DNA of 64,000 nt, taken from UHGV virus genome UHGV-0038492; one strand, 5' to 3'. The translations under genes and the position numbers were made by a program. Under the pieces are notes generated by a model. The model searched no databases, had not been told where the DNA came from, and saw nothing but the letters and a program-made list of their open reading frames with translations. Source of the DNA: a virus. Below are positions 17,751-64,000 of the stretch, piece after piece (positions within the stretch are counted from its first letter, which is position 1; each line of letters starts with the position of its first letter).

Positions 17751-18110
17751 ATGGCTTACAATCACAACTCTATTGTTTTAGCAAAACGTAAATTCGGTCT
17801 TCATCTTTCTTACGTGATTCGTCATTTGACAGCGAAAGACATTACACAGCGTGAACTTGCCCAGCTTGCGAAAGTTTCACAGCCGGTTATTTCATCTATT
17901 AAGAACGATCATAGCGAACGCCTGAGTCTACCAATAATGATGAAGGTTGCTGATGCAATTCGTCTGAAATATCAGATTACGTTTAATTCTGTTAAAGGGC
18001 GTTGCTCAGTAACGGTTCACGTAGAGTCTGCGTTGGACTACGTTGCAAATACGTCCCTTAAACGTACAGCGAAAAATATTCGTTTTGTTACTAACAGCGC
18101 AACACACTAA
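17751..18110 (+). CDS. helix-turn-helix DNA-binding protein (XRE/Cro-like)
   Basis: ITQRELAQLAKVSQPVISSIKN is a typical HTH; gene lies about 55 nt downstream of a promoter-like motif; ATG at 17751. Confidence 0.55.
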   Translation: MAYNHNSIVLAKRKFGLHLSYVIRHLTAKDITQRELAQLAKVSQPVISSIKNDHSERLSLPIMMKVADAIRLKYQITFNSVKGRCSVTVHVESALDYVANTSLKRTAKNIRFVTNSATH

Positions 18111-27796: not shown

Positions 27797-27843
27797 CTCC
27801 TACCGCCCGATTCTATGGGCGGTAGGTGTTTTATTTTTTTTTC
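27797..27843 (+). terminator. intrinsic terminator
   Basis: CTACCGCCC...GGGCGGTAG hairpin then T10. Confidence 0.75.
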
Positions 27844-47325: not shown

Positions 47326-48174
47326 ATGTCTCTTACGTCAAAACAGAAACTGCTAAAACTCATCAACACTGAAAACAATATTATTCCACCGTTGACTTTC
47401 AGTGATGTTGAAATCGGGGAACCTACCGGTACTGGGGTTGATACCCAGGTGGTTCTGACCTCTAAACTTAAAGGCGATGAGTCTACTACTTTAACAGTGA
47501 CTTACCACCGTCGTAACTTACCTGACTACCTAACCGGTGAGTTGGTATTCGGTAACGACAGTGTGGTAACCGCATCAGATTTGCTTAATGCGATTAACGC
47601 AAAATACAACCTAAATATTTTACCCTCGGATATCGTTGACGCAAAAGTTGAAGGCGAAACCCATCAGCTTACCGCTAACGAGAAATCTTACGAGTGGTGC
47701 GGTGTAGTAACGCTTACGCTGCGCGATCCTATTGACCTGACTGAACTGTTACCGGTTACTCAATTAGAGAATCTGGTAGAGTATCCGTCCACGAAGAAAG
47801 GTAACGCGGCGGTTTATTCTCACCCGATTGATTTCACCGCAGAAAAAGATTACCTTGACCCGATTACTATCAACGACGCTGTAGACTTGGTAGAATTAGC
47901 TACTAAACTGGATAGCGTCGTTGACGAGAAATGGGTAAGCGTACCTAAGAACGCGGCTAACAACCTGTACGGAGCGAAGATTATTTACGATGGTCCAACC
48001 GCAGGTTACGAAGGCGCAAATACGAAGTTCACTCGTGTGTTGGTGCTAACACTCAGCCCGCTGTGTTCTAACCTGACCGGTAACCTGTTAATTCACTTTA
48101 ACGGGACCGATCGTCCGAAGTCGAAGATTGAATTAGCACAGACTAATCCGGTCTTACCGGGATTCTTAGATTAA
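47326..48174 (+). CDS. hypothetical protein, fibre-associated small-protein family (extended)
   Basis: 282 aa; contains SDLLNAINAKYNLNILPSDI matching the family motif. Confidence 0.65.
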   Translation: MSLTSKQKLLKLINTENNIIPPLTFSDVEIGEPTGTGVDTQVVLTSKLKGDESTTLTVTYHRRNLPDYLTGELVFGNDSVVTASDLLNAINAKYNLNILPSDIVDAKVEGETHQLTANEKSYEWCGVVTLTLRDPIDLTELLPVTQLENLVEYPSTKKGNAAVYSHPIDFTAEKDYLDPITINDAVDLVELATKLDSVVDEKWVSVPKNAANNLYGAKIIYDGPTAGYEGANTKFTRVLVLTLSPLCSNLTGNLLIHFNGTDRPKSKIELAQTNPVLPGFLD

Positions 48175-48187
48175 GAGGATTACAGTA

Positions 48188-48667
48188 ATGGCCAATCAAG
48201 AAACTATCTTCGACCTTATTAAAAAGGCTAACCCGGACGCTGAGTTCGACACCACCAAAGTCACACTGGGTGAACCGGTTGTGACCACCGGTACTTACAA
48301 TACCGAAATTACGGTTGCGTCGATTAAGAATCTCGGTTATGTTAATAAGCAAACGTTCCAGTATAACCGCATTGACGCAGGTTTGTATTTCCTGAACGTA
48401 TTACCGAAATTGTTGGTAGAATCTGCAACGACTACCGCTGACTTACTGCCCGTCATTAACGAGCAGTACAGCCTAACCCTTACAGAAGACGACGTGTGGG
48501 TAGAACAGGTTGGTGAGTTACCGTTAGACGGTAGCGCAATCGAACACGGTATTTTCTTCCGTCCTGAGTGTCTGACCTGGGTTGGTGGTTTTACAGTGCG
48601 TGTTGCGCGTAAACCGGCTGACGCCACACCGCCAAAGACGGCGTCTCGCGCTAAAAAGAAAAAATAA
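48188..48667 (+). CDS. hypothetical protein, same family
   Basis: 159 aa; ADLLPVINEQYSLTLTEDDV motif; Lys-rich C-terminus; terminator downstream. Confidence 0.6.
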   Translation: MANQETIFDLIKKANPDAEFDTTKVTLGEPVVTTGTYNTEITVASIKNLGYVNKQTFQYNRIDAGLYFLNVLPKLLVESATTTADLLPVINEQYSLTLTEDDVWVEQVGELPLDGSAIEHGIFFRPECLTWVGGFTVRVARKPADATPPKTASRAKKKK

Positions 48668-48671
48668 TCAC

Positions 48672-48706
48672 AGGGTGGGGTAATCCCCACCCTCTTTTCT
48701 TTTTTG
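48672..48706 (+). terminator. intrinsic terminator
   Basis: AGGGTGGGG-TAAT-CCCCACCCT then T-run. Confidence 0.75.
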
Positions 48707-48729
48707 TGTAAAATAGGAGTTAAACGAAA

Positions 48730-49320
48730 ATGGCCGAACGTTGGACTAAAGAAGGTATTATTGAATCCAAAACCGATTTGGAAGGTGGGTACGTCAACGA
48801 CCCTGACGACAAAGGTGGAGAAACCTGTCACGGGGTAACACTGACAACTGCACGCGAATACGGGTACAAAGGAAGAATGAAAGATCTGACCCGTGCGCAA
48901 GCGTTTGACATTTACGATCGTGGTTGGTGGAAGAAACTTAAACTCGATGAGATTTTCGCTATCTCGCCGATACTCGCCGACCGGATGTTTGATTTTGCTA
49001 TTAACTCTGGCCGTGTTAACTGTGTGAAGTCATTACAACGTATTCTCAACGTTTTAAATAACGAAGGGAAACTTTACGCAGATATTGACACCGACGGTGG
49101 TATGGGACCTAAAACACTAGGTGCTCTGAATGCTTATCTAAATTACCGTAAAGGCGAGGGATTAGGCATCTTAATCTTTGCGTTAATCTCACACCAGGTA
49201 ACCTACTACACGGAAATCTCCGAAAAGCGTAAGAAGAATGAAAAATTCGCTTACGGCTGGTACGGACGTGTGTACAGGGAAATGCCGGATTATGTAGTGA
49301 AGGCGGGGTTAGTAAAATGA
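48730..49320 (+). CDS. endolysin-like peptidoglycan hydrolase (GH108-type N-acetylmuramidase)
   Basis: N-terminal EGGYVNDPDDKGGETCHGVT matches the conserved GH108 signature (EGGYxNDPxDxGGxTxxG). Confidence 0.7.
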   Translation: MAERWTKEGIIESKTDLEGGYVNDPDDKGGETCHGVTLTTAREYGYKGRMKDLTRAQAFDIYDRGWWKKLKLDEIFAISPILADRMFDFAINSGRVNCVKSLQRILNVLNNEGKLYADIDTDGGMGPKTLGALNAYLNYRKGEGLGILIFALISHQVTYYTEISEKRKKNEKFAYGWYGRVYREMPDYVVKAGLVK

Positions 49321-49421
49321 ATTGGTTTGCTAAACTCTTAGCGTTATTGTGGAAAGCGTTAACGTCTGGTCGAAAACGTAAAGACGAAAAACGTGGGCAA
49401 GAATTCTTCTGGTTTTTGTAA
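49317..49421 (+). CDS. 34-aa amphipathic peptide (possible lysis accessory)
   Basis: ATGA overlap with endolysin stop; MNWFAKLLALLWKALTSGRKRKDEKRGQEFFWFL; too short for the ORF track. Confidence 0.3.
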   Translation: MNWFAKLLALLWKALTSGRKRKDEKRGQEFFWFL

Positions 49422-49436
49422 GGAAAGGTGTGGGTA

Positions 49437-50102
49437 ATGGAAAAGCTTCAATATAAACGTTTAGATGATAAGTGGTTTGTATTAACGGAGGATTACCATT
49501 ATCCGTTTACGTTACGTGAGATTTATCACGACCACGTACACTTAGACCGTGCGGTTTATTTAACCGGTGTATTACCTGACACGCAACTGTGGTTAACCGC
49601 TCCGAAAGGGTTCGTAACGGACTTAGCGTCGATACCCGAACACTTACAGGGAATTTTCCATCCTGACGGGCCTTGGGCACCGGCTGCGTGTATTCACGAC
49701 TTGTTATACCAGAAATGCAGTACGGAACGTAGCTACCCTATGACGCCCGGTGGAAACGTTTCTCGCATTATCGATAAAGAGTTCGCTGACTTAACGTTTC
49801 TGCGTATTATGCAGTCGTTAGAAATCTCACCGTATATCTGCCAAACGTTTTATAAAGCCGTTGTAGGATTCGGTTGGGATGCTTACGTAGACCCTAACGC
49901 GAAACCGTCTTATACCACTAACGACTACCGTACGTTAGATTACAATCGAAACTATTTGTTCGTTCGCGAGTTTAAGGAGCCTGCTATTCCTGACCACGAA
50001 CGAGTTGATATCACCACAGGTTGTCCCGTTAATGTCAAATACCTGAACATTAAACGGGCTTTTCTGTCTGGGAGGGAAGATGTTTCATCCAAATCCGAGT
50101 AA
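49437..50102 (+). CDS. hypothetical protein (DUF1353-like, tentative)
   Basis: AAGGAAAGG RBS before ATG 49437; segment GFVTDLASIP resembles DUF1353-type phage proteins. Confidence 0.55.
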   Translation: MEKLQYKRLDDKWFVLTEDYHYPFTLREIYHDHVHLDRAVYLTGVLPDTQLWLTAPKGFVTDLASIPEHLQGIFHPDGPWAPAACIHDLLYQKCSTERSYPMTPGGNVSRIIDKEFADLTFLRIMQSLEISPYICQTFYKAVVGFGWDAYVDPNAKPSYTTNDYRTLDYNRNYLFVREFKEPAIPDHERVDITTGCPVNVKYLNIKRAFLSGREDVSSKSE

Positions 50103-50595
50103 CTTTAAAATCAAAGAGTTAGTACCGCAATCGTACATCACCAAATACGGTGATTCTGCAATTCGGTTTATGAACCCGCTGTTAATGATTTCGCTACAGC
50201 AGATTCGTAACCGTTTCGGCAGAATGGTAATTAACTCGTCTGCTGCGCAACAACGTGGTTTAAGAACCTTAGACTTTTTCATCAACCAAGAAAAGCCTAA
50301 GGGTGGTAACTATAAACAACGTGCTTTACAACTCTATTCCGATTCAGGAAGTCAGCACAAGTTCGGTAACGCGTTCGACGCAACATTGTTAGATTCAACG
50401 GTAAAACAAGTCCACGATTACATCGCCGCCAATCCTGATGAGTTTCCGTTTATTCACTTTATTGAATGCGACATCAGTTGGTTACATATCGATGTTCGTA
50501 ACCAACCGAATATCACGTTCTGGTCACCGAATCGGGGTACTGTGAAAGTCGCGAAACAAAGCCCTATCGATTGGAGCGCCTTAGTTAAAATCTAA
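50080..50595 (+). CDS. peptidase M15-like (LAS-type zinc peptidoglycan peptidase)
   Basis: SQHKFGNAFD fits the SxHxxGxAxD zinc-binding motif and a later WLHID provides the second His. Confidence 0.5.
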   Translation: MFHPNPSNFKIKELVPQSYITKYGDSAIRFMNPLLMISLQQIRNRFGRMVINSSAAQQRGLRTLDFFINQEKPKGGNYKQRALQLYSDSGSQHKFGNAFDATLLDSTVKQVHDYIAANPDEFPFIHFIECDISWLHIDVRNQPNITFWSPNRGTVKVAKQSPIDWSALVKI

Positions 50596-50679
50596 GCGCA
50601 TATTCCTTAACTTAGGGTGATTGTACCTTATTTTGTATAAACCGTCTTAGAACGCGTTCTAGCGCGCTCTACGGACAAA

Positions 50680-50718
50680 ATAAACCTACCCTCCTGCTTA
50701 GCAGGAGGGTATTTATTA
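50680..50718. terminator. bidirectional terminator between convergent genes
   Basis: ACCCTCCTGC-TTA-GCAGGAGGGT flanked by A-rich and T-rich tracts. Confidence 0.7.
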
Positions 50719-51195
50719 TTCTACCGGGTGCAGCATAGTGCCGGTATCTGGAATGCTGCCTTCGTGACATCTGAAGAACGTTACACCTTTACCTTCACCT
50801 GTTTTGTAGTTGATGGTAGAATACGCAAACGTTGGGGTTTTCGACAGTAACCCGTTTACACGGTAATAGCGCTCACCGGTAACAACGTTTAAGTTACCGT
50901 CCACTTTACCTAACAGGTCTTTATAAAGTTGCGGAGATTCAATTTTACCTTCGTCCCATGTAGCGACCCAATTCGCTCCTGTATCCATGACTAACACCGA
51001 AAGGGGCATCAGTTTTAGGCTAGACGGTACCGGTTTAAAATCAGCGAATTCTTGAGAAGCACCTGTACAGGTGTAAATGACCATATCGTGTTGGTCAACA
51101 GGTACGGTGGAGAACTGACCTTCTGCGTTCGGCTGAATAGCACAACTTGCCAATGTCATTACAAAAGCAACGACCACGAGAATGCGTTTTAGCAT
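50716..51195 (-). CDS. lipoprotein (signal peptide with lipobox LASC)
   Basis: AAGGATGAG RBS before ATG at 51195; MLKRILVVVAFVMTLASC; lone minus-strand gene between two plus-strand blocks with terminators on both sides. Confidence 0.65.
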   Translation of the reverse strand: MLKRILVVVAFVMTLASCAIQPNAEGQFSTVPVDQHDMVIYTCTGASQEFADFKPVPSSLKLMPLSVLVMDTGANWVATWDEGKIESPQLYKDLLGKVDGNLNVVTGERYYRVNGLLSKTPTFAYSTINYKTGEGKGVTFFRCHEGSIPDTGTMLHPVE

Positions 51196-51334
51196 AATCT
51201 CATCCTTATTAAAATTAAGAAAAATTAATTTTTTCAGGTTAGCGCTTACTGCCAACCGTCATATCTATATTTTAGGAAATGTCTAAAATAACATTCTTAT
51301 GCAATCCACCCCTGCCACTTACGAGGTAAAAACG

Positions 51335-51871
51335 ATGGCTAAAGCCTTCAAACAGCAGCTCATCGAAGCTGTAATTGCTAAAAACTCAGAAACCGCTTCT
51401 AATCTGACGGTTGCTGATGTTGATTTTGGCGCTGTTGCTGAGTTCAGCGGAGACGCTGGCCGCAACACTAAAATTACCCTGACCGCCAAGGCAGAAAGCC
51501 AGAACTTCAAAGGCGAGAAAGAATTCCACTACATTCGTCTGGCTTCTCAAGACCTGATCGGTGCTAAAGCTTACGAACAAGCCGGTAGCCTCGATCTGGA
51601 AAACTCTGCCATTGTAACCAAACTGAACGAAGAAATGGTTACTAAAGGTTATGTCGATGACGAGTTTGCAGAGAGCGAACTGTCCATTGAGAAATCCGAA
51701 GGCGACAGCGGTGCTAAAGTTTACACTGTCAAAGTAAGCGAAGGTCACATCAAATTCCTGGCTGGTACCATTGCCACCTTCACTTATTCCAACCCAGCTC
51801 CTGAGAAGGTAGCACTGAGCGGTCTGGAAGGTGAACTTGATGGCTTCACTGCGCCGGGTGTCGGTGGCTAA
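51335..51871 (+). CDS. hypothetical protein, paralog 1 (C-terminal GELDGFTA motif)
   Basis: GAGGT RBS before ATG 51335; host-like high-expression codon choice; paralogous to ORF 51943. Confidence 0.65.
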   Translation: MAKAFKQQLIEAVIAKNSETASNLTVADVDFGAVAEFSGDAGRNTKITLTAKAESQNFKGEKEFHYIRLASQDLIGAKAYEQAGSLDLENSAIVTKLNEEMVTKGYVDDEFAESELSIEKSEGDSGAKVYTVKVSEGHIKFLAGTIATFTYSNPAPEKVALSGLEGELDGFTAPGVGG

Positions 51872-51883
51872 GTAAGTTAAATC

Positions 51884-51904
51884 GGGGGGGGGGTGACCTC
51901 CCCC
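51884..51904 (+). other. G10...C5 homopolymer hairpin between the GELDGFTA paralogs
   Basis: ATCGGGGGGGGGG TGACCT CCCCCGAT about 40 nt before ATG 51943. Confidence 0.6.
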
Positions 51905-51942
51905 GATATTTCTTTAACTCGTATTATTAAGGACCTAAGATA

Positions 51943-52473
51943 ATGGCCGCTACTAACCAGATGATGTTGGTCGCGCTTTATAATGCTGCTAACACTGAGC
52001 TACCGCATCAGATTACAGATAAAGAAGTGTCCTTTGGTTTGCCTGCTGCGCTGGAAGGCGAAGGTAAGAATACCAAAGTTACCATGACCGCACTACCGGG
52101 TTCTGAGAATTTCAAAGGCGAAATCGAACTGCATTACGATCGTCTGGAGCCAGGTGTTGTAGGACGGATTGAACTAACTGACGATCTGTCTCGCTGGGTT
52201 CAAGAAAATGAACTCCGTGCTTGGTTACAGTATTACATCAACAAAGTAAAACCTGACGACGCTATCGCACCAGGCGACGTTGTGTACAACACCGAAGACC
52301 AGAAAGACGAACATGAAAACGTCACTCTGCGTACCGTGACGTGCACCGTTACTGAAAAGAACCTCCGTTATAAACCAGGTGTAATGGCAACTTTCGTAAT
52401 TACACCGAAGGTTGTCGATAATCGTATTGACCTGGCCACCACCAACGGTGAGTTGGACGGCTTTACTGCTTAA
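51943..52473 (+). CDS. hypothetical protein, paralog 2 (C-terminal GELDGFTA motif)
   Basis: AAGGA RBS; shares TK(I/V)T(L/M)TA...ENFKGE and the C-terminal motif with ORF 51335. Confidence 0.65.
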   Translation: MAATNQMMLVALYNAANTELPHQITDKEVSFGLPAALEGEGKNTKVTMTALPGSENFKGEIELHYDRLEPGVVGRIELTDDLSRWVQENELRAWLQYYINKVKPDDAIAPGDVVYNTEDQKDEHENVTLRTVTCTVTEKNLRYKPGVMATFVITPKVVDNRIDLATTNGELDGFTA

Positions 52474-52510: not shown

Positions 52511-52546
52511 TACCTACCTCCGTAAAGGAGGTAGGTATTTTTTTTT
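52511..52546. terminator. bidirectional terminator between convergent genes
   Basis: TACCTACCTCC-GTAAA-GGAGGTAGGTA flanked by an A-run and T9. Confidence 0.75.
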
Positions 52547-52554
52547 GCCGCTAA

Positions 52555-53226
52555 TTACAGCCCTTGCTCTAATGCAAACGCTTTAATTGAATCGTAATCA
52601 CGGGCTTCGGCCCAAGCTCTGACTTCTTTTTTCTGTTCCGTCATTGCCTGATGCAGTTGCTGGTCGCGTTGCACAATAGCACCCAGCAGTGTTTTGCACT
52701 GCTCTAACGTAAACGGTTCGATACGGGTGTTGTTGGCCGTTAACCAATACGCTGGCGCGGTTTCTGACTGAATATAACGACTCAGTGCTACCTGTGACTT
52801 CTCATCTGCCTGGAAAGTGAAATCACCCACTTGAATCTCGGCATACCGCGCATCCTGATAACGGAATTCCAATGCGCTTAGGATTTTCTGAACATCGGTA
52901 AAGATATACCGCACAGTGGAGCGTAAACCCGTACGAATCTCTTCCAGGTCAATTCCCAACGTGTCGTTAACAAAGTCTTTCGCTTTCTGTAACGTAAATC
53001 GTGCTTCGATTTCAGACATGTCGTAGTTACGCATTTGTTCCAATGCTTCACGATCGGACATCCCATCAATCAATTTATAGTGCAGTAACGCACAAAAACC
53101 CGTACGACCATGATCTTCGCTACCGATTTTTTCCATATAGTTACCATGGCGGTCAATCGGTAAATCGTGCTCAAAATAACGACGACGGATTTCTTCTTTC
53201 GTTAAGCCTTCACCAGTAGCAGACAT
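52555..53226 (-). CDS. hypothetical protein, last gene of the fibre/radical-SAM operon
   Basis: 223-aa ORF overlapping the upstream gene by 25 nt; terminator downstream. Confidence 0.6.
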   Translation of the reverse strand: MSATGEGLTKEEIRRRYFEHDLPIDRHGNYMEKIGSEDHGRTGFCALLHYKLIDGMSDREALEQMRNYDMSEIEARFTLQKAKDFVNDTLGIDLEEIRTGLRSTVRYIFTDVQKILSALEFRYQDARYAEIQVGDFTFQADEKSQVALSRYIQSETAPAYWLTANNTRIEPFTLEQCKTLLGAIVQRDQQLHQAMTEQKKEVRAWAEARDYDSIKAFALEQGL

Positions 53227-53774
53227 TCATCGTCTCCTTTAATCAATCCTAATTCGATTAACAGTTCAAAATCGATATGACGGAATCTTGTATCAAAATC
53301 CGATTCCCAATCGATGCGGATACCCTGGCACTCTTCTGATGTTAGCTCGGGAAAAATTACGGTATTAAATTTCTCACGCTCATCGTAAAACCCATCAATC
53401 GGTGAGTTCGGGTTACGCGTTGCGAAAATAGTAATACCAGGGAAAGATAATGCTAACACAGTGATAGATTCTGCGCTGGGCTCACTTAAAGAGCGGCGTA
53501 GAAACGCAATTTTGTGGCGTGGGAAGTCCAATACGCGTTCTTCAAACCCTGGATTACGTTTTTCGATTTCCGCTACCGACAGGTCAGTAAGTTCGGTGCA
53601 ATACATTGGGATGATTACAGTCACGCCGTGGCGAATCAGTAAACGTTTTACGTCATCGGTAAAATCTTCGCCGTTAATCATCACGTAACAACCGAACAGC
53701 TTACTGTTTTCCAGAAACTTATCCAGAAGTCGAATTCTACGCTTCGTAATATTGTTGATCAGAATTGGTTTCAT
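53202..53774 (-). CDS. hypothetical protein co-operonic with radical-SAM enzymes
   Basis: 190-aa ORF overlapping both neighbours. Confidence 0.6.
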   Translation of the reverse strand: MKPILINNITKRRIRLLDKFLENSKLFGCYVMINGEDFTDDVKRLLIRHGVTVIIPMYCTELTDLSVAEIEKRNPGFEERVLDFPRHKIAFLRRSLSEPSAESITVLALSFPGITIFATRNPNSPIDGFYDEREKFNTVIFPELTSEECQGIRIDWESDFDTRFRHIDFELLIELGLIKGDDECLLLVKA

Positions 53775-55059
53775 CTTTGGCTTCTCTTAATAATTTTTCC
53801 TTTTGGGCGCGTTCACGAACACAGCGTGGGCAATAACACATACTCGTGTCGTGGAACGCTTTTGCTGACGTCGTACCCATCTTCTGTTTCCAGTATTCCG
53901 CCACCATCAGTTTCGCTGTCGTCCACCCGCACTGACGTCGCTCAGCGTGATACGCTTTACGGTCTTCCAGTGTCCCTTCACCGTTTTCGTAAGAAGCCGC
54001 AGCGCAGCTACCACAAGCGTGTTTCATCGGACAACCTAAGCACGTCTCTGGATAGTTGGTATATTGTGTTTGAATCTCTTCTAACAATTTACCGTTGTCC
54101 AGGCTGACGAATTCCCGACCTACCAACTCAAATACCGCAGAACGTGATGTTACGGTTGACATAAAGCGATTGCAACCGAAGATCTTACGGTCAAAACCTA
54201 AACACGTCATGTGTGTTAATGTCCCACAGAACGGACGTAAACGTTCTGGGTTCAACCGCACCGTGTCATTATAAAGTAATTGATCACGCCAGTTCGGTTC
54301 CCAAATCGTATCGAAATCCAACCCTTCTGGGATGATGTGCGATAAGATATTACGTGGGTTGGTGTGTAATCCTTTCTCGACCCAATAATCAATCACATCC
54401 ATCATCTGCAATGCAATTGAAGTAGCCATCCCACGTGGCATAATGTCTTCGAAGGTTACGTTGCCGGAGATAGTTCCGCCACCAGTAATATCAATTAATG
54501 ACTTCATTCCGGCAGCATAGTACGGTAACGTTTCTAACGTAAAGGTCGCCTTTACGCCAAGCTCTGCAATGCCAACCTCTTTTAAGTAGTTATAGCCTCG
54601 TACTGCGGCTTCGTAAGAACCCTGGCGCGTCGTTGTAAAGATACGATAACGGTCATGGGACTCAGGTAAGCCGTCAATTGAAACCCCAACCGAAAGTTTG
54701 TCTTTCCAACGCTCTACGATCTCACGGTTCAACGGGCGATCTAACAACGTCCCGTTTGTGGAAATACTAAACATAAACGGCCGATTATGTTCTTTACACA
54801 ACTGCTCGGCGGTTTCAAATGCAGCCAGCAGCAACTTAGGCTGCATGAACGGTTCACCACCGATAATGTCAATAATAACTTCAACATTCGGTTCGTTTTT
54901 ATCGCGTTCAAAACAGGCGTGCAAGAAATCAACAATATCTGCCGCTTTGTTGTTACGCGGGTACTTACGTTCGTAACAATATTCGCAGTCCAGGTTACAC
55001 GAAAGGTTCGTTACAATCTGATACGTTAGCTGCTTAGGGAATTCATTTACCTGACTCAT
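53737..55059 (-). CDS. radical SAM enzyme with C-terminal SPASM-like Cys cluster (anSME/peptide-maturase-like)
   Basis: N-terminal CNLDCEYC (CxxxCxxC), GGEPFM SAM-binding motif, and C-terminal cysteines (CLGCPMKHACGSC...CYCPRC) typical of auxiliary Fe-S clusters. Confidence 0.75.
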   Translation of the reverse strand: MSQVNEFPKQLTYQIVTNLSCNLDCEYCYERKYPRNNKAADIVDFLHACFERDKNEPNVEVIIDIIGGEPFMQPKLLLAAFETAEQLCKEHNRPFMFSISTNGTLLDRPLNREIVERWKDKLSVGVSIDGLPESHDRYRIFTTTRQGSYEAAVRGYNYLKEVGIAELGVKATFTLETLPYYAAGMKSLIDITGGGTISGNVTFEDIMPRGMATSIALQMMDVIDYWVEKGLHTNPRNILSHIIPEGLDFDTIWEPNWRDQLLYNDTVRLNPERLRPFCGTLTHMTCLGFDRKIFGCNRFMSTVTSRSAVFELVGREFVSLDNGKLLEEIQTQYTNYPETCLGCPMKHACGSCAAASYENGEGTLEDRKAYHAERRQCGWTTAKLMVAEYWKQKMGTTSAKAFHDTSMCYCPRCVRERAQKEKLLREAKDETNSDQQYYEA

Positions 55060-55966
55060 TTGCCGCCCCTCTATTACGACCTGCCATCACTACGCGACGA
55101 ATATATTCGTACGCCTCTACACCGATAGAGAAGGCCAGTTGGTTACACCCGGATTCCAGTACGTTAGGTGCGTTCTGGAGCTGGTGCTCACCACCGTCTG
55201 CATTAATCCAGAGACTTTCGCTGCAAACGTTACACCCTTCTTCAAACACTTTACTTACCGTAAAACCACATTCACGACTGTTTACTACATTCAGTCGTTC
55301 AATGTTGTCCTGAACCCGATAGTAGCCGTAAATAAAGTTCATGACGTGGTCAGGTGATAAAGGCTTTGGCATTTTCGCATCTAAGAGTAACGTCATTGCT
55401 CGGAAACCGTAATGGTAAATCGCGCTGTGCAGCTGAATAATATCTTCATGCCAACGTTTATCCCCCAAACGGTCCCGTGTCAAGACACCCCAAGTCTGGA
55501 CATTATCCAGCTCGTAGATCGTTTCCAGTGCTTCGTAACAGCCTTCGTCAATAAAGCGCATAAATGGACGCTCAGACGACTTAAACCCATCGATGCTAAC
55601 GTAGACATTGTCAAACTGTTTTAGCAACGGGAGATGCGATTTACGCATCTTTAAGCCATTGGTATACAACTGGTGTTTGAGTTCTGGACGAATCACTTTT
55701 AATTCGTCAACAAACGCCTCAATTTTACGGGTTGCCAATAGTGGCTCACCACCCGTCCACTGAATTTCGGTAATGGTTGGATTAGCTTCCAGCGCTTCCA
55801 AAATTCGCTCACGTTGAAACTCTCGCGGAGAATCTTCACGATTCATGTAATAGGCTCCACCGCAGAAGCTACAATCCAGGTTACACTTGGACGTAGCGAC
55901 TACGGACAATACGGTGGGTTTATCGTATAAACGATTCGATAACCTTGGTTCTGCATTGGTTGTCAT
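55043..55966 (-). CDS. radical SAM enzyme, paralog of the 440-aa enzyme
   Basis: CNLDCSFC and GGEPLL motifs; C-terminal Cys pairs (CGFTVSKVFEEGCNVC...GC); overlaps downstream gene by 17 nt. Confidence 0.75.
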   Translation of the reverse strand: MTTNAEPRLSNRLYDKPTVLSVVATSKCNLDCSFCGGAYYMNREDSPREFQRERILEALEANPTITEIQWTGGEPLLATRKIEAFVDELKVIRPELKHQLYTNGLKMRKSHLPLLKQFDNVYVSIDGFKSSERPFMRFIDEGCYEALETIYELDNVQTWGVLTRDRLGDKRWHEDIIQLHSAIYHYGFRAMTLLLDAKMPKPLSPDHVMNFIYGYYRVQDNIERLNVVNSRECGFTVSKVFEEGCNVCSESLWINADGGEHQLQNAPNVLESGCNQLAFSIGVEAYEYIRRVVMAGRNRGAANESGK

Positions 55967-55987
55967 TGCAGGTGACTCCGGTCGTTT

Positions 55988-56887
55988 TTAAATATAATCA
56001 ATGGCGAACAAAGGATCGTCGTCTACGTTAGCACCAGGGGTTAACAAGAATGGAGAGTTATACGCTTCCAAAATACGGTTAAGGTCTTTATAACGGACAT
56101 TTAAACGTTCTAAATCCGCTAACGTTACGTTACGGTCCAACACCGCCGACACTGCTGCTTTCTCTTCGTCAGTTAACGTGACTTTCGTCATTAAGAAACT
56201 AACGAGTTTTGCCAGATCCGCTTCTGTTGACGGATGCTCGCCGATACGCGTTTGAATCAAATGCTGCATCCATGGTTTACGGATGCGTTTTGTGATCTCA
56301 TGTTCATCCGTTAGGGCAACCCACACGGAACGTTCACGATCCCACACGAACTTATAGCTATACGCCATTAAATCCGCTAAACAATTAATCCCTAAGGCTT
56401 CGTACCCTTCAATTTCAATATACGATTCCGTATCGAAATAGTTCTTCGTTTCTGGTGTTACCAGGGTAAAGAAATACGGGAACGAGCCCAAGTAATCTGG
56501 TGACCACCAACGACGGGCAACCGGTTTTGCACCCATTTCTTCAAACGGGGTAAAGAACAATTCCATATCCACGGAGTTATTCAAAATCCCATCACTAAAG
56601 AAATATTTACCTGCAACCAATTTACCACGCAACTCAGAGTCACCGGTAAATACCACTACACTTTCTGCCGTCAGATCACGAATCTTAAACGTATTTTCTA
56701 CACGATAGTTTTTACGATCGGTAAAGAAACGTCCGCGCACTTTAGGCCATTCGCCTGGCAATTGCGTCAGCAGACGAACTTCATCTGCTAAGTGTGCACG
56801 TACGGAATCAGGGGAAGAAATGTGAAGTGGATGATTGAAAATCGTTTTGTACGCTAAATGTAAATCATTCTTCATTGATTGCTCCAA
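55988..56887 (-). CDS. hypothetical protein between Cys-rich proteins and radical-SAM enzymes
   Basis: 299-aa ORF; no motif recognised. Confidence 0.6.
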   Translation of the reverse strand: MEQSMKNDLHLAYKTIFNHPLHISSPDSVRAHLADEVRLLTQLPGEWPKVRGRFFTDRKNYRVENTFKIRDLTAESVVVFTGDSELRGKLVAGKYFFSDGILNNSVDMELFFTPFEEMGAKPVARRWWSPDYLGSFPYFFTLVTPETKNYFDTESYIEIEGYEALGINCLADLMAYSYKFVWDRERSVWVALTDEHEITKRIRKPWMQHLIQTRIGEHPSTEADLAKLVSFLMTKVTLTDEEKAAVSAVLDRNVTLADLERLNVRYKDLNRILEAYNSPFLLTPGANVDDDPLFAIDYI

Positions 56888-57142: not shown

Positions 57143-57349
57143 TTACCGCCCCCCTGCTCCCTTACTACAGCTACCGCTGCACGACCAGCTACATCCACCG
57201 TTACAGTTGTAGTGGCTTAAAGGTAAACCGGCAAGGTTATTGGTTGAAGACACGGTACCCTGGTTTGCAATATAGTTGTTTGCGTTAGCGGTCGTAATAT
57301 ACCCTTCCGCTGTTACTAAACGATCACGAAGGTTCTTAAGGCTAATCAC
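57143..57349 (-). CDS. Cys-rich protein, short copy 3
   Basis: GTG start 6 nt after GGGAGG (which is also the last two codons of the upstream gene); leader ISLKNLRDRL... then NCNGGCSWSCSGSCSKGAGGR. Confidence 0.55.
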   Translation of the reverse strand: MISLKNLRDRLVTAEGYITTANANNYIANQGTVSSTNNLAGLPLSHYNCNGGCSWSCSGSCSKGAGGR

Positions 57350-57351
57350 AA

Positions 57352-57750
57352 TTACCTCCCAGAACACCCACCGGAACAAGAACCTGAACAGCCTGAAGAA
57401 CAGTTCCCTGTACACGCGTTAGAACAGCTCCCCGTGCAACTTCCTGAACACCCACCGGAGCAGGTATTCGAACATCCGCTACAGCCCGCGCTACAACCTG
57501 ATACGCAGTTTGCAGAACACGAGGAACCACAACCACCGGATGCGTTTCCTGTGCAGCCACCAGAACAACTCGAACACGTCCAGCTACAACTACCTCCGCA
57601 GTCGTAGTGATTGCGGGCCTGTCCTCCGAATAAGTCTGCGTTGTTTGTCGCTTTCCCGCGAATATAGTTTTGTACTGCACCCGTATTCTTCAATGCAGTG
57701 CTGTCAATGTTATTTAACCGCGCTTGTAGCGCAGGTAATCCAATTGCCAT
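57352..57750 (-). CDS. Cys/Gly/Ser-rich protein, copy 2
   Basis: 132 aa; ~50-aa N-terminal leader-like region ending DCGG, then about 80 residues with 20 Cys in a C-x2-3 periodicity. Confidence 0.7.
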   Translation of the reverse strand: MAIGLPALQARLNNIDSTALKNTGAVQNYIRGKATNNADLFGGQARNHYDCGGSCSWTCSSCSGGCTGNASGGCGSSCSANCVSGCSAGCSGCSNTCSGGCSGSCTGSCSNACTGNCSSGCSGSCSGGCSGR

Positions 57751-57760
57751 TTTTCACCTC

Positions 57761-58156
57761 TTAGGTTGGGCCAGAACAGCCGCCAGAGCAGGCACCAGAA
57801 CAACCCGTAGAACAACGGCCTGAGCAAGCACCCCCACAGGTTCCGCTACAACCTGAACACCCACCTGAACACGTTGAGCTACATCCAGTACATTGGTTAC
57901 CGCACGCAGAGGAGCAGCTGCCTACACACACAGACGTACAAGTACCCGAACAGCTCGTACAACCATGCGTACAGCCGTTTGAGCACGTCCAGCTACAACT
58001 ACCTCCGCAGTCTAACCGGTTTGGCGTCCAACCCGAAAATGTGTCGGCTGCATTATGTGCTTTCGACGCAACTTGCGGATCAACACGTGGGCCAGTTGCC
58101 ATTTGGTTCTCTACGTTGGTGATTCGGTCACGTACGTTTTTAACACTGATCGCCAT
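57761..58156 (-). CDS. Cys/Gly/Ser-rich protein, copy 1
   Basis: AAGGA RBS before ATG 58156; leader MAISVKNVRDRITNV...LDCGG then 21 Cys in about 80 residues. Confidence 0.7.
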   Translation of the reverse strand: MAISVKNVRDRITNVENQMATGPRVDPQVASKAHNAADTFSGWTPNRLDCGGSCSWTCSNGCTHGCTSCSGTCTSVCVGSCSSACGNQCTGCSSTCSGGCSGCSGTCGGACSGRCSTGCSGACSGGCSGPT

Positions 58157-58223
58157 CACGTATCCTTAAAATAAAAAAGAATGGAGGACTACGTCCATAA
58201 ACATAGTTCCTCCTGTAATTAAA

Positions 58224-59429
58224 TTATTTCGTACCCGCTTCCGCCTGTACGTCATCACGAGACGTCAGGTTAGCGTTAACGTGTACTGCGGCCTGAACCA
58301 CGCCACCGTATTTCTTGTGGAGATAACCGGTGTGTGGGTTATCTGCCGCAATGTGGTTTTGTAGGTTTTGGTTCGCTTGACTGATTGCGTTCGTGTTATT
58401 GTTAACCTGCTGTTTAAGCGCATCCAGGCTTTGTTGTACCTGATTGATTTTCTGATCGGTTTCTTGACCCTGTTGCTCTAACGCGTCAACACGCTGAATA
58501 ACCTGATTCAGTTTTGTGTTTAAATCGTTGATGTTCTTTTGCAGCTGTAACACTAACGAGTTCAGGTTCGCTAACGCTAAGGCCATTTTCTGGTAGTTTT
58601 GAGCAACCACGTTAAGTTGGTCGTTCCACGCTTCCAGAGAGTTGACAACAGCGTCAATACGTTTACCTAAAGCTTCGTCCGCTTTCTTCAGTGCATTGAT
58701 TTCCGTAATCGTTGCATCGATAGCAGACTGAACGTCACGAATAAGCGCACGGATTTCAGTTTCTCTTAACCCGTTAACCTGGTGAATATCAAGATGGTGA
58801 ACGTTACCCGTTGCGTTGATGTGTGCATTTAAAGCATCTAAGAAGTCATTTTTCAGACTTTCTAAAATCGCTTTAATGTTCTCTAACTGTACCGCGTCAC
58901 CAGAACTGATCGCATCTTTAATCCCCGCCAATACGGTGATGATATATTCAAAACCGTAGATGTCACCCACGTCTTTATACGTCGGTGCAGACGGGAATGT
59001 ATCCGGTACGTTACGTAAGTCTTTAAACGCAATCGTACGGTTATCGAGGTTTAACTCAGCAATCGCCTGTTCGATAGCCACGATGTTCGCAGACTGTGGA
59101 CCACCAACGACCTGCGCAGATACCGTAATATCTGTTGGAATCGCTGTGTTAGTGACCACCACCGCCATAACAATCTCGCGGTTTTTAGTCAGCTTTTCAT
59201 AAGTCGGGTGTGCAAAAATCAACTCATAATCGGTACCACGTTCGTAGGTTGCTTCCGGTCGGTTAGCAACGCGTAAACGGAACGTGTCCGCAAAGAACGG
59301 ACCATCAGGAAAAGCAAAAGCACGGTTTACTTTACCTGTACCTAACGTAATCTGACGCTCCACAGCGTTAGACGTTAGCGAGCCCGTTAAATCTAAAGGA
59401 TATTGATAAACAATGGAGGCCATGGCCAC
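58224..59429 (-). CDS. tail fibre protein with long coiled-coil
   Basis: 401 aa; central heptad-rich Asn/Gln/Leu region typical of fibre shafts. Confidence 0.7.
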   Translation of the reverse strand: MAMASIVYQYPLDLTGSLTSNAVERQITLGTGKVNRAFAFPDGPFFADTFRLRVANRPEATYERGTDYELIFAHPTYEKLTKNREIVMAVVVTNTAIPTDITVSAQVVGGPQSANIVAIEQAIAELNLDNRTIAFKDLRNVPDTFPSAPTYKDVGDIYGFEYIITVLAGIKDAISSGDAVQLENIKAILESLKNDFLDALNAHINATGNVHHLDIHQVNGLRETEIRALIRDVQSAIDATITEINALKKADEALGKRIDAVVNSLEAWNDQLNVVAQNYQKMALALANLNSLVLQLQKNINDLNTKLNQVIQRVDALEQQGQETDQKINQVQQSLDALKQQVNNNTNAISQANQNLQNHIAADNPHTGYLHKKYGGVVQAAVHVNANLTSRDDVQAEAGTK

Positions 59430-59463: not shown

Positions 59464-62400
59464 TTAAGATGTAAACATAAGATTGAACTGGAGTTTGTCG
59501 ATATCGCGAGTTTCTGCTGGATTCACACCATCGTACGCGGTCGCTACGTAAACCGTTAGCGTGCCGTTAGCGTAAGACGATTTCACCGGTGGGTTAGTTC
59601 CAGTCTGACCATCTCGCACAATGAGTGTAGGTTCACTTGGGAGATTATCAAACTGACCCTTGACCGCTTTATACACCAAACCAGATTGCGCAGACAGTTC
59701 AGTGTCCGTAAAGACAAAGAACGGTGTGTCGATATCAGCCTGTTTAATCGTGGTACCGGTCTCGACGTCAATCAACTGTACCGCCCCAAACTTCGTACGA
59801 TAACTTTCATACTCGTTCTTCGGAATAACGAACGTGACGTGAACGCGAACCTCCTCGGCAGGTTTAAACCCAGCGTGCTCTTTTTCCAGGTACTGGTTGG
59901 CGGTTAACGTGACGTCCTGCTCTTTCATCGTACCACCGGCCTGGTTTAATGCATAGCGAGCTTCAACAATACCGGTTGGCGCAGCAAGTCGCAGTTTCAG
60001 AGCACGATTTGCCGTTCCTGGATTACCTGGCACCTGAACGCGCAAACTCAATGCTAAGTAAACATTCGTTCCGGTAGTCGGTTTCGTATACGCACCAATC
60101 CATTTCATGTTCGCAGACGCTGCCTGCGTGTTCTCAGAAGCAGTGGCTGTCGCAATGTTAGCAGCTACCGCTTTCTGCCAGAATTGGTCAGCGCAGTTCT
60201 CATACGCTACCCTGGCCACGCTCTTATAACCCGAATACGTTTCCTGAATTGGTAACTTAGGACGCGTCGTAATACCAGACAATGAACCCCATTTTTGACC
60301 GTCAACATACCCTTCGCCCTTCGACGCAGACGCCGTAGGCGCTTTAACGGGTTTGTTAACCAGTGTTAATAGAGGACCCGTCTTTCTGTCAAACGCTGCT
60401 GCAACATCATGTTGGTCGATAATTGCTGCGTGGTCTTCCAGTTCTTTCACACGACCCAAACGTTTTACTTTGTCGATGTTGATACCAGTAATACGGCTGG
60501 AATCGGTGGTTACTGACCCGACGAACAGTCTTGTTGAAGTGTCAGCTAACTGCTCCAAACCGATACGGTATTGCGCAGTAGAACCTGACACCTCAGCGTG
60601 CACGTAGAACGTCTGGTTAGCGTGGTTAGACGGGAATTCGCTGCTTAAATCCACAGACCACGTTGGGAGTGTGTAACTGCTGCTACCGAAGTCTAACTTG
60701 ACTTCTTCTGTCAAATACAGAATCCAGCCTTCTGCTGTCTCCACACCGGCAATAATAACAGCCTGACCTCCGGTTGAGAACCTCGTGTCGTTAACGAACT
60801 CTGCGGCTGTATACGCGTTACCTGAACAGAAAACACGGTCAGCTTTAGAGTAAATCAACGCCATCTTGTCCCAATTACCCGCACCCATATAGCACCCAGA
60901 TTCTGGGTTATGTGCAGGGGCCATCTGTCGTAACTGTGACTTACCAGGAACGCGAGACCAACCTGAACCTGGGTCGTAGGTATACTTCGCGGCGTAACCT
61001 AGTGCATTTAAGTCCCCGATATTTCGGATAGTTAACGTATAAGGTAGCCAAATACCGAAGTTTACACCGTCGGCAGAAGCAAAAATTGGCTGACCGACAC
61101 GTCGTGTTTTATTACCCGCTTCTTCCCTCAGAGACTGATAACTTAAACCATAATCGAGGTCTAAGAACCAGTCCACCAACTTAAAGGTGGCTGAGTTGAA
61201 ACGTAAGTAGCCGTTCTCTTTAGATGGACTCACCATGAAGTAATAGATGTCAAGAATTCGACGTCCGTTACTTGAGGTTTTCATGCACGAAACTTGCAAC
61301 AAGTCAAATTCGCACACGGTGTTGATACCCAACATCCAAAGAGCAAACAGTGCATTACCGGTTTGATGTGCAGCACTGATGCGCTCATTCGCGTAACCAT
61401 TTGCTTGACCAGATGGCGCACCGTCAACGATCATCCGAATCATTTTCTGACGATCGGCTTCTTCTAGCGTTAAGCGTTCGGAAGACAATGCGAAATTACC
61501 GTAGATGTTACGATACGGGAACGTTTCTGCTTTGGTCAAATACCAACCGTTTAGCTGCCCGTGACGCTCCTCAGGAGTCATGCACGCAGCCATACAGCTA
61601 AGCTGCTCGTAGAGCGTTGGATCGACTTCACGACGGTTGTTGTTCGGACCGTATCCGCTATAACCCGGAACATCGTAAGGTTTGTTCGGATCAACTTCTA
61701 CTTCGATGGTGTAACGGTTACGTGGGTTAGACAACCACACTTTATTCGAACCGCCTATTCCGACAGGATGGGAAAGACCGATGGTGTAAATAGAACCGCG
61801 ACCTTTATCCCAGGTAAACGTTCCTTCGCCCGAGGTGTTGTTTGGGTTATCGTAACGCAGATAATCGAAAAGCTCTTTGCCTTGTGTACCCTTAATAGAA
61901 ACATTAGGCATTTGGTCCGCATCGTTAATCTGCCAGCAGGAAAGCATCATTCCTGTACCGTTAGGTTTTGCATACGTCGCGAAACAACGGTTGTTTGCCT
62001 GACCACCACCCCACTTACGACTGGTTTCTACAGTTGAACCATCCGCGAACGAGAGTGCAGTAGCATCAGCCTTGATGGGGAAGCGTTCGCGGCCTTCTAA
62101 CGTAACCTTGCCCGTCAACGTATCGATTGTAAAACTTGTTGCCCATTGACGAAAGTTAATTTGTGAGCTGTCGGCCGCTGCAAACCACACAGTAGGCATA
62201 TGGTTCACACGAATCACGCTTTCGCGTACCGCACACGCGTGGTTACATTCTGGCCCGTGAACAAAGTTGTGGCCAATTGTCCATTTAGCCCGTGCTTCCG
62301 GCGTCAAATACGTAAAGAATTGACCCGTCTGCGACTCTTCGGTTTTCTGGCCAATACGTAGGCAGAGGTTATCTCCGAATTGTCCCATTTCACCGGTTAG

Positions 62401-64000
62401 TGTTACACGTTCAAATTCTAACGTAGTGTTAGTAGACAAATCGTCTTTACGTAAGCGCCATGCTGCAACAGCGTAAGCAGAGTTATTTACCGTGGAGCGG
62501 AGAAGATAAACATAGTCCTCAACCAACACAACGTCATCGGCTTCTGGCCACGGATTCCAGGTTTGTTCTGTAGTACCGCTGGGGTTACCGTTACGGTACA
62601 TAGGCATCGTGACACGACATACCACCGTGTGTTTAGTGTGGTCCATCGAACCATTAAACAGCACCAAATAACGATTATTGTCAGAACCCAGGCAAATAAT
62701 CGCTTCCTGACCACCGATCAATATCGCTTTTAGGGTCACTCCAGGATATTTACTCATCCCGGCAGGGTGATATTTCACTGAGGTCTGCTGCGGATTTACA
62801 AACGCGTTTGAGGTGTTAATGTCCGCGTAGCCGTAATAAATGGCTTCTGTACCCGGCACGCCATTAGAACCGTTACGTAGCGAATAAACCTTACCCTGCT
62901 GATACCCAACAACCCCTTTCTGGTAAGACTGGTTTTTGGTATAGCCCGCGTAGTTACCTAACGCTGGGATAGGTAAGAAGTTCTTATTACCGAACTTCGC
63001 ACCGCCTACCGTCCATGCCGGTAAGATGGTATTCAGTTTATCAGAGACTTTCTTAATCTCTTTTGCGAACAACCACCCTTGACGTGACGTGACAGCTTTA
63101 TCATTAGTGGTGTCAATTGCATCCCACAGCTGTAAGACACCGTCAACCGTTGCACTACCAATTGGGACGTTATCCAAGTCAGCAGTGGTGTGGGTGTGCG
63201 TTTTCAAACTCTTGTTTTTCAACACGTTCGTTAACGCTTTTGTCACAGGCTTAGCACTCGGTATGGTGTTATCCATCTTATCGATACCGAAATCGGTTTT
63301 CGTTAAGGTTAACACCATCTTGTCGCCCGTCTTAACAAACCCTTTACCGTTAACGGTATAGTCATCGTCAACGTACAGGTCCAAACGGTCTTTTAGTTCG
63401 GTTACGGCTTTCTGGGAGATGGCAGTACCTAACGCCGCAGACGTAGAGATGTTCGTAATCGAGAACAACCCATAAACTGATTCGGACGCTGTGGGAATAT
63501 TCGCGTTTAACGTGACCGGGTTAGTCTGTTTTGCAGTACCGTACGGTTTTACGGTGTCTGACGCTTTGAAATACGCGTTTGCTTCAAGCAACGTTACTGA
63601 CGTCAGATACATGTTCACCATTTCTGGCGTGACCAGGTACACGGAGTTATAAACCGGTGCTAATACATCCTGTTCTGACCCCGAGTGAACCCAAAGCGTA
63701 TTCAGACCCGCACTAAACTCCACCGCTAAACCTGATTCGTTATTGTCCTGGTCTGCTTTAATCACTAACGGTTGCGGTGAGGTAATTAACCACTTATCAC
63801 CACGAATACTGATGATGTGACCACCTGACGTTTTAAACGTTAATTCATTACCGTTCGTGGTACCCCATCGACCGTAAACAGTACCGAGGGCTTCACCCAT
63901 TAACTGATCAACGTCGGATTGCTCGATACCCGCTGAACCCATCAGCGTAGCCAATTCGTCAATCGTCAACCCAAATGCTTTTGTGGCGTCAACAGCGCGT
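59464..64000 (-). CDS. very large tail fibre/receptor-binding protein, 5' end outside window
   Basis: More than 1500 codons open to the window edge (track start at 63969 is a TTG and the frame stays open); Thr/Ser/Gly/Asn-rich beta-type composition. Confidence 0.8.
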   Translation of the reverse strand, partial: RAVDATKAFGLTIDELATLMGSAGIEQSDVDQLMGEALGTVYGRWGTTNGNELTFKTSGGHIISIRGDKWLITSPQPLVIKADQDNNESGLAVEFSAGLNTLWVHSGSEQDVLAPVYNSVYLVTPEMVNMYLTSVTLLEANAYFKASDTVKPYGTAKQTNPVTLNANIPTASESVYGLFSITNISTSAALGTAISQKAVTELKDRLDLYVDDDYTVNGKGFVKTGDKMVLTLTKTDFGIDKMDNTIPSAKPVTKALTNVLKNKSLKTHTHTTADLDNVPIGSATVDGVLQLWDAIDTTNDKAVTSRQGWLFAKEIKKVSDKLNTILPAWTVGGAKFGNKNFLPIPALGNYAGYTKNQSYQKGVVGYQQGKVYSLRNGSNGVPGTEAIYYGYADINTSNAFVNPQQTSVKYHPAGMSKYPGVTLKAILIGGQEAIICLGSDNNRYLVLFNGSMDHTKHTVVCRVTMPMYRNGNPSGTTEQTWNPWPEADDVVLVEDYVYLLRSTVNNSAYAVAAWRLRKDDLSTNTTLEFERVTLTGEMGQFGDNLCLRIGQKTEESQTGQFFTYLTPEARAKWTIGHNFVHGPECNHACAVRESVIRVNHMPTVWFAAADSSQINFRQWATSFTIDTLTGKVTLEGRERFPIKADATALSFADGSTVETSRKWGGGQANNRCFATYAKPNGTGMMLSCWQINDADQMPNVSIKGTQGKELFDYLRYDNPNNTSGEGTFTWDKGRGSIYTIGLSHPVGIGGSNKVWLSNPRNRYTIEVEVDPNKPYDVPGYSGYGPNNNRREVDPTLYEQLSCMAACMTPEERHGQLNGWYLTKAETFPYRNIYGNFALSSERLTLEEADRQKMIRMIVDGAPSGQANGYANERISAAHQTGNALFALWMLGINTVCEFDLLQVSCMKTSSNGRRILDIYYFMVSPSKENGYLRFNSATFKLVDWFLDLDYGLSYQSLREEAGNKTRRVGQPIFASADGVNFGIWLPYTLTIRNIGDLNALGYAAKYTYDPGSGWSRVPGKSQLRQMAPAHNPESGCYMGAGNWDKMALIYSKADRVFCSGNAYTAAEFVNDTRFSTGGQAVIIAGVETAEGWILYLTEEVKLDFGSSSYTLPTWSVDLSSEFPSNHANQTFYVHAEVSGSTAQYRIGLEQLADTSTRLFVGSVTTDSSRITGINIDKVKRLGRVKELEDHAAIIDQHDVAAAFDRKTGPLLTLVNKPVKAPTASASKGEGYVDGQKWGSLSGITTRPKLPIQETYSGYKSVARVAYENCADQFWQKAVAANIATATASENTQAASANMKWIGAYTKPTTGTNVYLALSLRVQVPGNPGTANRALKLRLAAPTGIVEARYALNQAGGTMKEQDVTLTANQYLEKEHAGFKPAEEVRVHVTFVIPKNEYESYRTKFGAVQLIDVETGTTIKQADIDTPFFVFTDTELSAQSGLVYKAVKGQFDNLPSEPTLIVRDGQTGTNPPVKSSYANGTLTVYVATAYDGVNPAETRDIDKLQFNLMFTS

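Follow-up and report, generated by a model that had tools for sequence, protein, structure and literature searches.

How are we to understand a giant gene that is cut by the edge of the sequence in which it was found, and that stands upstream of genes for cysteine-rich proteins and radical S-adenosylmethionine (SAM) enzymes? The question is raised by positions 59,464 to 64,000 of a stretch of 64,000 nucleotides (the window in all that follows) from the virus genome UHGV-0038492, where a first examination of the letters, hereafter the sequence-only reading, had seen a very large minus-strand fibre protein leading an operon that ends with the radical-SAM genes. The feature under study is the following:

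59464..64000, minus strand: partial coding sequence of a gp168-like baseplate fibre protein, the C-terminal 1,511 of 1,727 codons plus the stop (from full-length orthologs and phrog_7449).

We hold it to be very probable that this open reading frame (ORF) specifies the last 1,511 residues of an ortholog of gp168 of Salmonella phage SPN3US, in an uncultivated phiKZ-like jumbo phage of the human gut, and that the protein is a virion component, the product of a late structural gene which is one of four adjacent paralogs.

Read from 63999 down to 59464, the minus-strand frame consists of 1,511 sense codons closed by a TAA (59464-59466), with 0 in-frame stops up to the window edge, and the proposal of a frame of more than 1500 codons is therefore sound (the program's ORF list gives 59464..63969 because it begins at the first TTG). 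In the remaining five frames of 59464-64000 the longest open stretches span 55-160 codons. The longest antisense candidate, 158 amino acids at 61561-62037 on the plus strand, was discarded as a gene, stops interrupting it in close relatives. That the N-terminus lies beyond the window was likewise correct, and two contigs, L008 and L005, which over 12 kb share 98.1% and 97.2% identity, respectively, with the window, carry the complete gene: 1,727 codons, with no stop on the way to an ATG that is preceded by the ribosome-binding site TAGGAG and placed 95 nt past the stop of the upstream gene. The window thus lacks exactly 216 N-terminal residues. This phage lineage is met repeatedly, as the 440-residue radical-SAM protein encoded downstream recurs unchanged on many contigs of about 220-223 kb from human-gut metagenomes (it is indexed in 99 collection blocks; n=22 contigs were read). 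No nucleotide match was returned when the region was compared by megablast with 50,697 phage records; the relationship to known phages is visible at the protein level only.

At that level it extends over the whole protein. A tblastn search returned full-length matches in 51 jumbo-phage records, with 100% query cover for the best, those standing first being gp188 of Erwinia phage Asesino (53.5% identity) and SPN3US gp168 (SPN3US_0168, 46%), both of 1,727 residues, while a search of 5.8 billion proteins gave 38 full-length homologs of 1,642-1,901 residues; it is this full-length similarity that marks the frame as coding. The match to phrog_7449 (1,500.9 bits) covers profile positions 213-1708 of 1714, and its beginning at position 213 confirms the truncation. 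In SPN3US, gp168 is present in purified virions with 65 unique peptides and absent from tailless particles; it makes up, with gp169 and gp170, 'paralog family C', and is listed as a baseplate/fibre candidate related to phiKZ gp131 (PMC5105663, PMC5694885). The ORF, its orthology, its paralog family, its synteny, and the virion and tail location of the SPN3US ortholog can thus be taken as established, here or in the literature. Should one prefer a chance ORF, or a non-structural protein involved in replication or host takeover, one might point to Pfam, NCBIfam and the PDB, where neither the single sequence nor a 39-sequence profile found any significant match (0 in all). Yet a frame of 1,511 codons is conserved at full length in dozens of phages, and virions contain the ortholog, as seen by mass spectrometry, while tailless particles lack it, which effectively refutes this view; we give it next to no credence. 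Where a stop just past the window and a non-structural product had been named as fatal to the fibre proposal, we find a frame that extends and an ortholog that is a virion protein.

Where in the virion would such a protein sit? Its N-terminal region answers in part. In an hhalign comparison, positions 10-261 of the family profile align with residues 23-237 of phiKZ gp131 (probability 93.9%, E 1.6e-7), and blastp with the full-length protein of the 98%-identical contigs also reaches gp131 (E 3e-4). Only the last 50 or so residues of this region lie inside the window, the other 216 being beyond its edge:

63850..63999, minus strand: end of the gp131-homologous N-terminal region, residues 1-50 of the window part (hhalign, blastp/hmmsearch).

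By homology, then, the anchor domain of the fibre protein is identifiable, just outside the window. On contig L010 the co-oriented proteins of 1,440, 1,400, 1,727 and 399 residues all match the N-domains of phiKZ gp131/133/134/135, and their divergently transcribed neighbour of 420 residues (minus strand) matches phiKZ gp130 (E 2e-11). Residues 20-491 of the 1,727-residue protein align with residues 28-504 of the 1,400-residue paralog (E 4e-19), and HxH motifs are present in all three giants. On these alignments, the four adjacent paralogs (gp170-, gp169-, gp168- and gp167-like) share an N-terminal domain of the phiKZ gp131 type. The arrangement is that of phiKZ itself, where gp131/133/134/135 have the homologous N-terminal 230-260 residues or so, including an H...N-P-H motif, and where several adjacent paralogs stand beside the divergently transcribed gp130 homolog. 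In the cryo-electron microscopy atlas of phiKZ (2026), six gp131-like N-domains and a six-helix bundle beneath gp130 form the fibre attachment, with 12 peripheral fibres per virion (PMC13250141).

The differences from phiKZ are just as instructive. The gp131-family proteins of that phage have 457-771 residues, against 1,727 here, and no sequence similarity is detectable past the N-terminal region. Distal to its anchor, gp131 ends in a seven-bladed beta-propeller; for the gut phage a propeller-like fold is predicted there with low scores, and the domain of the gp131 crystal structure was not found when the PDB was searched with the family profile. Unlike the gut phage, phiKZ has no radical-SAM/CXXX cassette downstream. 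Two other phiKZ proteins were considered and set aside: the homology to ORF145 that Table 4 of PMC5105663 lists could not be recovered, and gp146 was likewise rejected as a homolog, hhalign giving a probability of 0.2% for each.

What, next, does the part of the protein inside the window look like? Two AlphaFold2 models, built on the 39-sequence family alignment, give 33% helix and 17% strand for residues 1-335, and 46-48% strand from residue 336 on. Beyond the end of the anchor, the following parts can be delineated:

62995..63849, minus strand: presumed oligomeric shaft, residues 51-335, the best conserved part (predicted local distance difference test, pLDDT, 27-66).

60850..62982, minus strand: tandem beta-propeller-like domains, residues 340-1050 (high-confidence beta-rich model).

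60475..60825, minus strand: small conserved beta domain, residues 1059-1175, common to the 1,440-residue paralog and to phrog_7557/phrog_3573.

60259..60465, minus strand: low-confidence helical or disordered linker, residues 1179-1247, with invariant H1190 and H1197; LEDHAAIIDQHDVAAAF.

59467..60255, minus strand: C-terminal beta-sandwich region, residues 1249-1511, a candidate distal host-binding domain.

Residues 1-335, modelled with low confidence, presumably form an oligomeric shaft. An H268-T-H270 motif (nt 63190-63198) is invariant in it, and residues 301-325 make a long helix; as far as residue 275 or so this shaft is common to the fibre protein and to the upstream paralog of 1,400 residues. 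Some 50 strands are then predicted between residues 336 and 1050, the strand-rich confident region extending over residues 345-1150 or so. Fold comparison of residues 340-1050, approximately, returns the propeller-like class with low scores, gp131 not being among the listed matches. The linker motif LEDHAAIIDQHDVAAAF resembles, to our eyes, the H...N-x-H junction motif that recurs in the family. The C-terminal sandwich, modelled with confidence, is reminiscent of receptor-binding heads and carbohydrate-binding modules (lactococcal phage p2, 2wzp; the distal tail protein of phage Chi, 8vjh; sugar-binding domains of glycoside hydrolase families GH2/GH78; CBM61), at 6-14% identity over 110-140 residues, a likeness of fold class and not a sign of family membership.

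These models bear on the proposal of a fibre rich in beta structure and in Thr, Ser, Gly and Asn. Composition follows it only modestly, as these four residues make up 30.7% of the frame (T 9.3%, G 8.5%, S 6.7%, N 6.2%), where the remaining long ORFs of the window have about 25.4%, and the beta-rich character, right from residue 336, does not hold for the more helical residues 1-335. We may also ask whether this is a fibre in the usual sense, that is, a classical thin homotrimeric tail fibre which, in that view, would also be the promoter-proximal first gene of one operon reaching through the radical-SAM genes. Its HxH and fibre-like motifs would suit such a protein. However, the models assign some 1,100 of the 1,511 residues to globular beta domains, tandem propeller-like and sandwich, and no classical tail-fibre model (Pfam, PHROG 'tail fiber') matches it, nor does any curated fibre family, its PHROG matches being all labelled 'unknown' or 'virion structural protein'. 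What survives of the fibre claim is a very large structural gene of the tail-fibre/baseplate class; a thin fibre is not what the models predict.

The way in which the protein varies gives further indications. In the relative P0006, residues 1-300 are 92-99% identical and the C-terminal part 77-93%, against 13-43% over residues 376-1125, a pattern which, in these alignments, is that of a module swap of the middle propeller region. The stretch exchanged inside this single fibre gene, between gut phages that are elsewhere nearly identical, corresponds to 60625-62874 of the window (minus strand; residues 376-1125 or so), P0006/L004-type variants having flanks 77-99% identical; over q991-3334 blastn gives no match for L004. 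Between genera it is the end of the protein that diverges most: compared with SPN3US and Asesino, the C-terminal 300 residues keep just 11-37% identity, and the middle region 28-65%. That this C-terminal domain might be a widely shared receptor-binding module was considered and rejected, as a deep HMMER search with its 263 residues, in a library of 1.84 billion proteins, found 5 representatives, all of the same family. Taken as a sequence pattern, this variability fits host-interaction modules. Such modules might do more than bind, and one may imagine that, at the same baseplate site, the propeller region is an enzyme (a glycosidase, a sialidase-like enzyme or a depolymerase) degrading surface polysaccharide. 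We think this unlikely, if conceivable: fold scores are low, and the non-enzymatic propellers of Kelch, WD40 and lectin proteins match equally well; no catalytic family is recognized by sequence in Pfam, NCBIfam or PHROG; and no conserved acidic catalytic residues were identified, the invariant columns of the propeller region being mostly G, P, W, Y, R and H.

There remains the place of the gene in its transcription unit, where its immediate neighbour must be introduced:

58224..59429, minus strand: gp167-like paralog of the fibre family, an ORF of 401 amino acids (blastp, PHROG, coiled-coil-type matches).

This gene more likely encodes 399 residues from the ATG at 59423, as called in relatives, and a true start two codons downstream explains why an exact-protein look-up with the 401-residue ORF gave nothing. 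Its product combines a gp131-like N-terminal domain with a coiled-coil C-terminal half, matches phrog_2163 (virion structural protein) and is related to phiKZ gp135 (blastp E 9e-15), so that the coiled-coil fibre gene announced next downstream is indeed there; in SPN3US, gp167 is present in the virion (PMC5694885). The gap between the large fibre gene and the gp167-like gene is of 34-40 nt, with no hairpin within.

One gene order holds throughout the lineages examined, even where identity falls to 25-31%: a gp171-like gene in the opposite orientation, two giants, the gp168-like gene, the gene of the 399-residue protein, a Cys-rich gene, a gene for about 295 residues, two radical-SAM genes, a gene for about 190 residues and a DUF4376 gene. 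SPN3US and Asesino show the same neighbourhood, with the divergent gp171-like gene, two giant paralogs upstream, the gp167-like gene (399-400 residues) downstream and, beyond it, the Cys-rich, 295-residue or so, two radical-SAM, 190-residue or so and DUF4376 genes; they differ in that the gut phage is known from human-gut metagenomes, with no cultured host. In every relative the two co-oriented giant paralogs lie directly upstream, with about 1,000-1,440 and about 1,350-1,400 residues, which makes the gp168-like gene the third of its series, not the first. The series starts from a divergent region shared with the phiKZ gp130-like gene. In this region (L010:1300-1366, L001:3286-3351, L002:3337-3403) a block of 23 nt, GTCATAGTATGAACTCGACGCCC, is invariant in three phages; it contains a TATG that precedes the start codon by about 30 nt. 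TATG being the motif required by the late RNA polymerase of phiKZ (PMC4666361), the block GTCATAGTATGAACTCGACGCCC is a candidate late promoter of the series of fibre genes. The invariant divergent-region block ATAGTATGAA was also searched for in the window, with no meaningful occurrence.

Could a unit nevertheless begin at the gp168-like gene? The gap upstream of it measures 90-95 nt (L005:317-411, L010:9906-10000, L001:11263-11352, L002:11261-11355) and is conserved in three lineages, with two stem-loops (z = -5 against shuffles), the second one GC-rich, with a compensatory change, and followed by a T-run. A new unit could begin after such a terminator-like hairpin, and this is a point in favour of a promoter-proximal fibre gene, together with the common direction and short spacing of all genes between the window edge and 52555 and with the presence of a single strong canonical terminator, at the far end:

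52511..52537, no strand assigned: strong bidirectional hairpin of 11 bp, with a T-run on the plus strand, between convergent units; it ends the minus-strand cluster.

Against it, the 95-nt gap has no TATG late-promoter motif, whereas the invariant TATG block precedes the first giant; two paralogous giants are always found ahead; and in L015 the gap is reduced to 3 nt, the stem-loops being absent. The notion of a fibre gene leading the operon is therefore not supported, and we would see the stem-loops of the gap, on the pattern of their conservation, as an attenuator/terminator or an RNA-stability element between paralogs.

The other end of the supposed operon is no firmer, as a further element stands between the fibre genes and those for the Cys-rich and radical-SAM proteins:

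58167..58213, minus strand: conserved stem-loop (58183-58213) whose loop holds TATG, and after it a T-run (58167-58181), past the gp167-like gene and ahead of the first Cys-rich gene.

This hairpin, 3' of the gp167-like gene, has covarying stems in 7 lineages, always with TATG in the loop (it is found also at L001, near 17785-17822, at L002, near 17788-17835, and in L010 and L015-L017); the T-run is there in most lineages, not in L015, and the first Cys-rich gene starts within about 20 nt. From its sequence it may be the terminator of the fibre genes, the late promoter of the downstream cassette, or both. Over the whole window, loop-TATG hairpins show no enrichment (17 observed against 17.8 +/- 3.1 in shuffles), so that the case for this one is a matter of conservation. 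A similar hairpin, with a TCTATGG loop and a T-run, is seen at 27799-27826 (plus strand), where it precedes a gene starting at 27860. A scan for sigma-70 promoters gave fewer sites than shuffles, a result of low relevance for a phage presumed, by analogy with phiKZ, to have its own RNA polymerases. With conserved hairpins bracketing the gp168-like/gp167-like pair, the Cys-rich/radical-SAM cassette probably has a transcription start of its own, which makes a single operon ending with radical SAM doubtful, and we infer that a single late unit comprises the four fibre paralogs, some lineages having an attenuator inside it. All in all, we consider a classical thin trimeric fibre at the head of one operon through the radical-SAM genes to be very unlikely.

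Beyond the hairpin one enters the cassette and its surroundings, with the following parts:

57761-58159 and 57352-57750, minus strand: two tandem CXXX-repeat Cys/Gly/Ser proteins of 132 amino acids (phrog_6085).

57143-57415, minus strand: degenerate third CXXX-repeat copy (from the sequence).

52555..56887, minus strand: a phrog_8030 protein of 299 amino acids, two radical-SAM enzymes, a protein of 190 amino acids and a DUF4376 protein of 223; the non-virion half of the conserved cluster.

55043-55966 and 53737-55059, minus strand: the radical-SAM enzymes (library matches, synteny).

The fibre gene is a real but ordinary structural gene, which would not surprise a specialist, and of the two it is this cassette that is the more unusual feature. 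The 132-residue proteins consist of a leader of about 50 residues followed by some 80 residues of perfect period-4 C-x-x-x repeats, such as CSGGCSGSCTGSCSNACTGNCSSGCSGSCSGGCSGR, and one matches the Cys-rich repeat model TIGR04114 with 20.7 bits, for a cut-off of 20. Both radical-SAM enzymes have as best NCBIfam matches the TIGR04115 and PapB maturases, well below the curated cut-offs: for the 440-residue enzyme, TIGR04115 (CXXX-repeat maturase) comes first with 116.9 bits, below its cut-off of 350, and the PapB ranthipeptide maturase family gives 115.9 bits, below 340. No lineage checked separates the cassette from the fibre genes, not even at 25-31% fibre identity, and its first Cys-rich ORF is unannotated in SPN3US and in Asesino. 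The SPN3US counterparts, gp161-166, are not in the list of virion proteins (PMC5694885); as the CXXX-repeat region has no tryptic sites, this absence is weak evidence. A comparison of the leaders of the Cys-rich proteins with the fibre paralogs gave nothing significant (best E 0.087), and in the literature we found no paper describing a CXXX-repeat/radical-SAM cassette in phages. It is a tempting thought, if a long shot, that peripheral fibres of the SPN3US type contain, or need for their assembly, a CXXX-repeat protein cross-linked by phage radical-SAM enzymes through ranthipeptide-like thioethers. Were this true, a modification in the style of peptides that are made on the ribosome and modified after translation (RiPPs) would be used to build a part of the virion, and the cross-linked CXXX component would be invisible to trypsin-based virion proteomics.

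The window holds other genes of the tail. A second giant gene, at 31938-36497 on the plus strand (1,519 amino acids), is matched by dozens of classical tail-fibre PHROGs, its C-terminus matching models of the T4-type long-tail-fibre distal subunit, and it is preceded by a 'tail protein' of 1,001 amino acids (28851-31856, plus). The phage appears, by these matches, to carry a canonical fibre besides those of the gp131 type, and the gp168-like protein need therefore not be the primary receptor-binding protein. Further on, the region around 47326-52473 (plus), with its equivalents in L004-L009, has several small genes with DUF7941, adjoining a GH108-type endolysin (48730-49320) and a DUF1353/tail assembly chaperone gene (49428-50102); DUF7941 has been proposed to form a 'fibre cloud' at the peripheral baseplate (2026 Goslar preprint).

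How, finally, might the protein work? Its docking geometry, its folds, its host-binding role and its transcription units are matters of inference. By analogy with phiKZ, the N-terminal domain and the helix that follows, outside the window, would be inserted in the outer baseplate, under the gp130/gp171-like protein, where six N-domains of this kind, bundled in a socket shared with the paralogs, would anchor the peripheral fibre. A less likely, further possibility is that the three giant paralogs and gp167 form hetero-oligomeric fibres around one socket of six N-domains, rather than homotrimers. The part encoded in the window would project outward, as the HxH shaft, the tandem propeller-like domains, the small beta domain, the linker and the C-terminal sandwich. 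Judging from models and variability, the variable, exchangeable propeller and sandwich modules would touch the surface of the host, most likely at a polysaccharide, binding, or possibly cleaving, a surface glycan and holding the baseplate on the cell. The short tail fibre gp12 of T4 offers a functional analogy only, drawn by the authors of the phiKZ atlas (PMC13250141), in that fibres attached to the baseplate are proposed to fix it to the cell; no relationship of sequence or fold was found between gp12 and the fibre protein, and the domain organization is another one. The gene would be expressed late, co-transcribed with its paralogs, and not as the first gene of a radical-SAM operon.

We can thus understand this locus as the addition of a gut-phage ortholog to the already described family of gp131/gp168-type baseplate fibres of phiKZ-like jumbo phages, which corrects at the same time the picture of the transcription units around the radical-SAM cassette. 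For a phage met again and again in metagenomes of the human gut, and with no host in culture, the domain map, with its conserved anchor and shaft, its swappable tandem-propeller module and its lineage-specific C-terminal sandwich, points to the likely determinants of host range.

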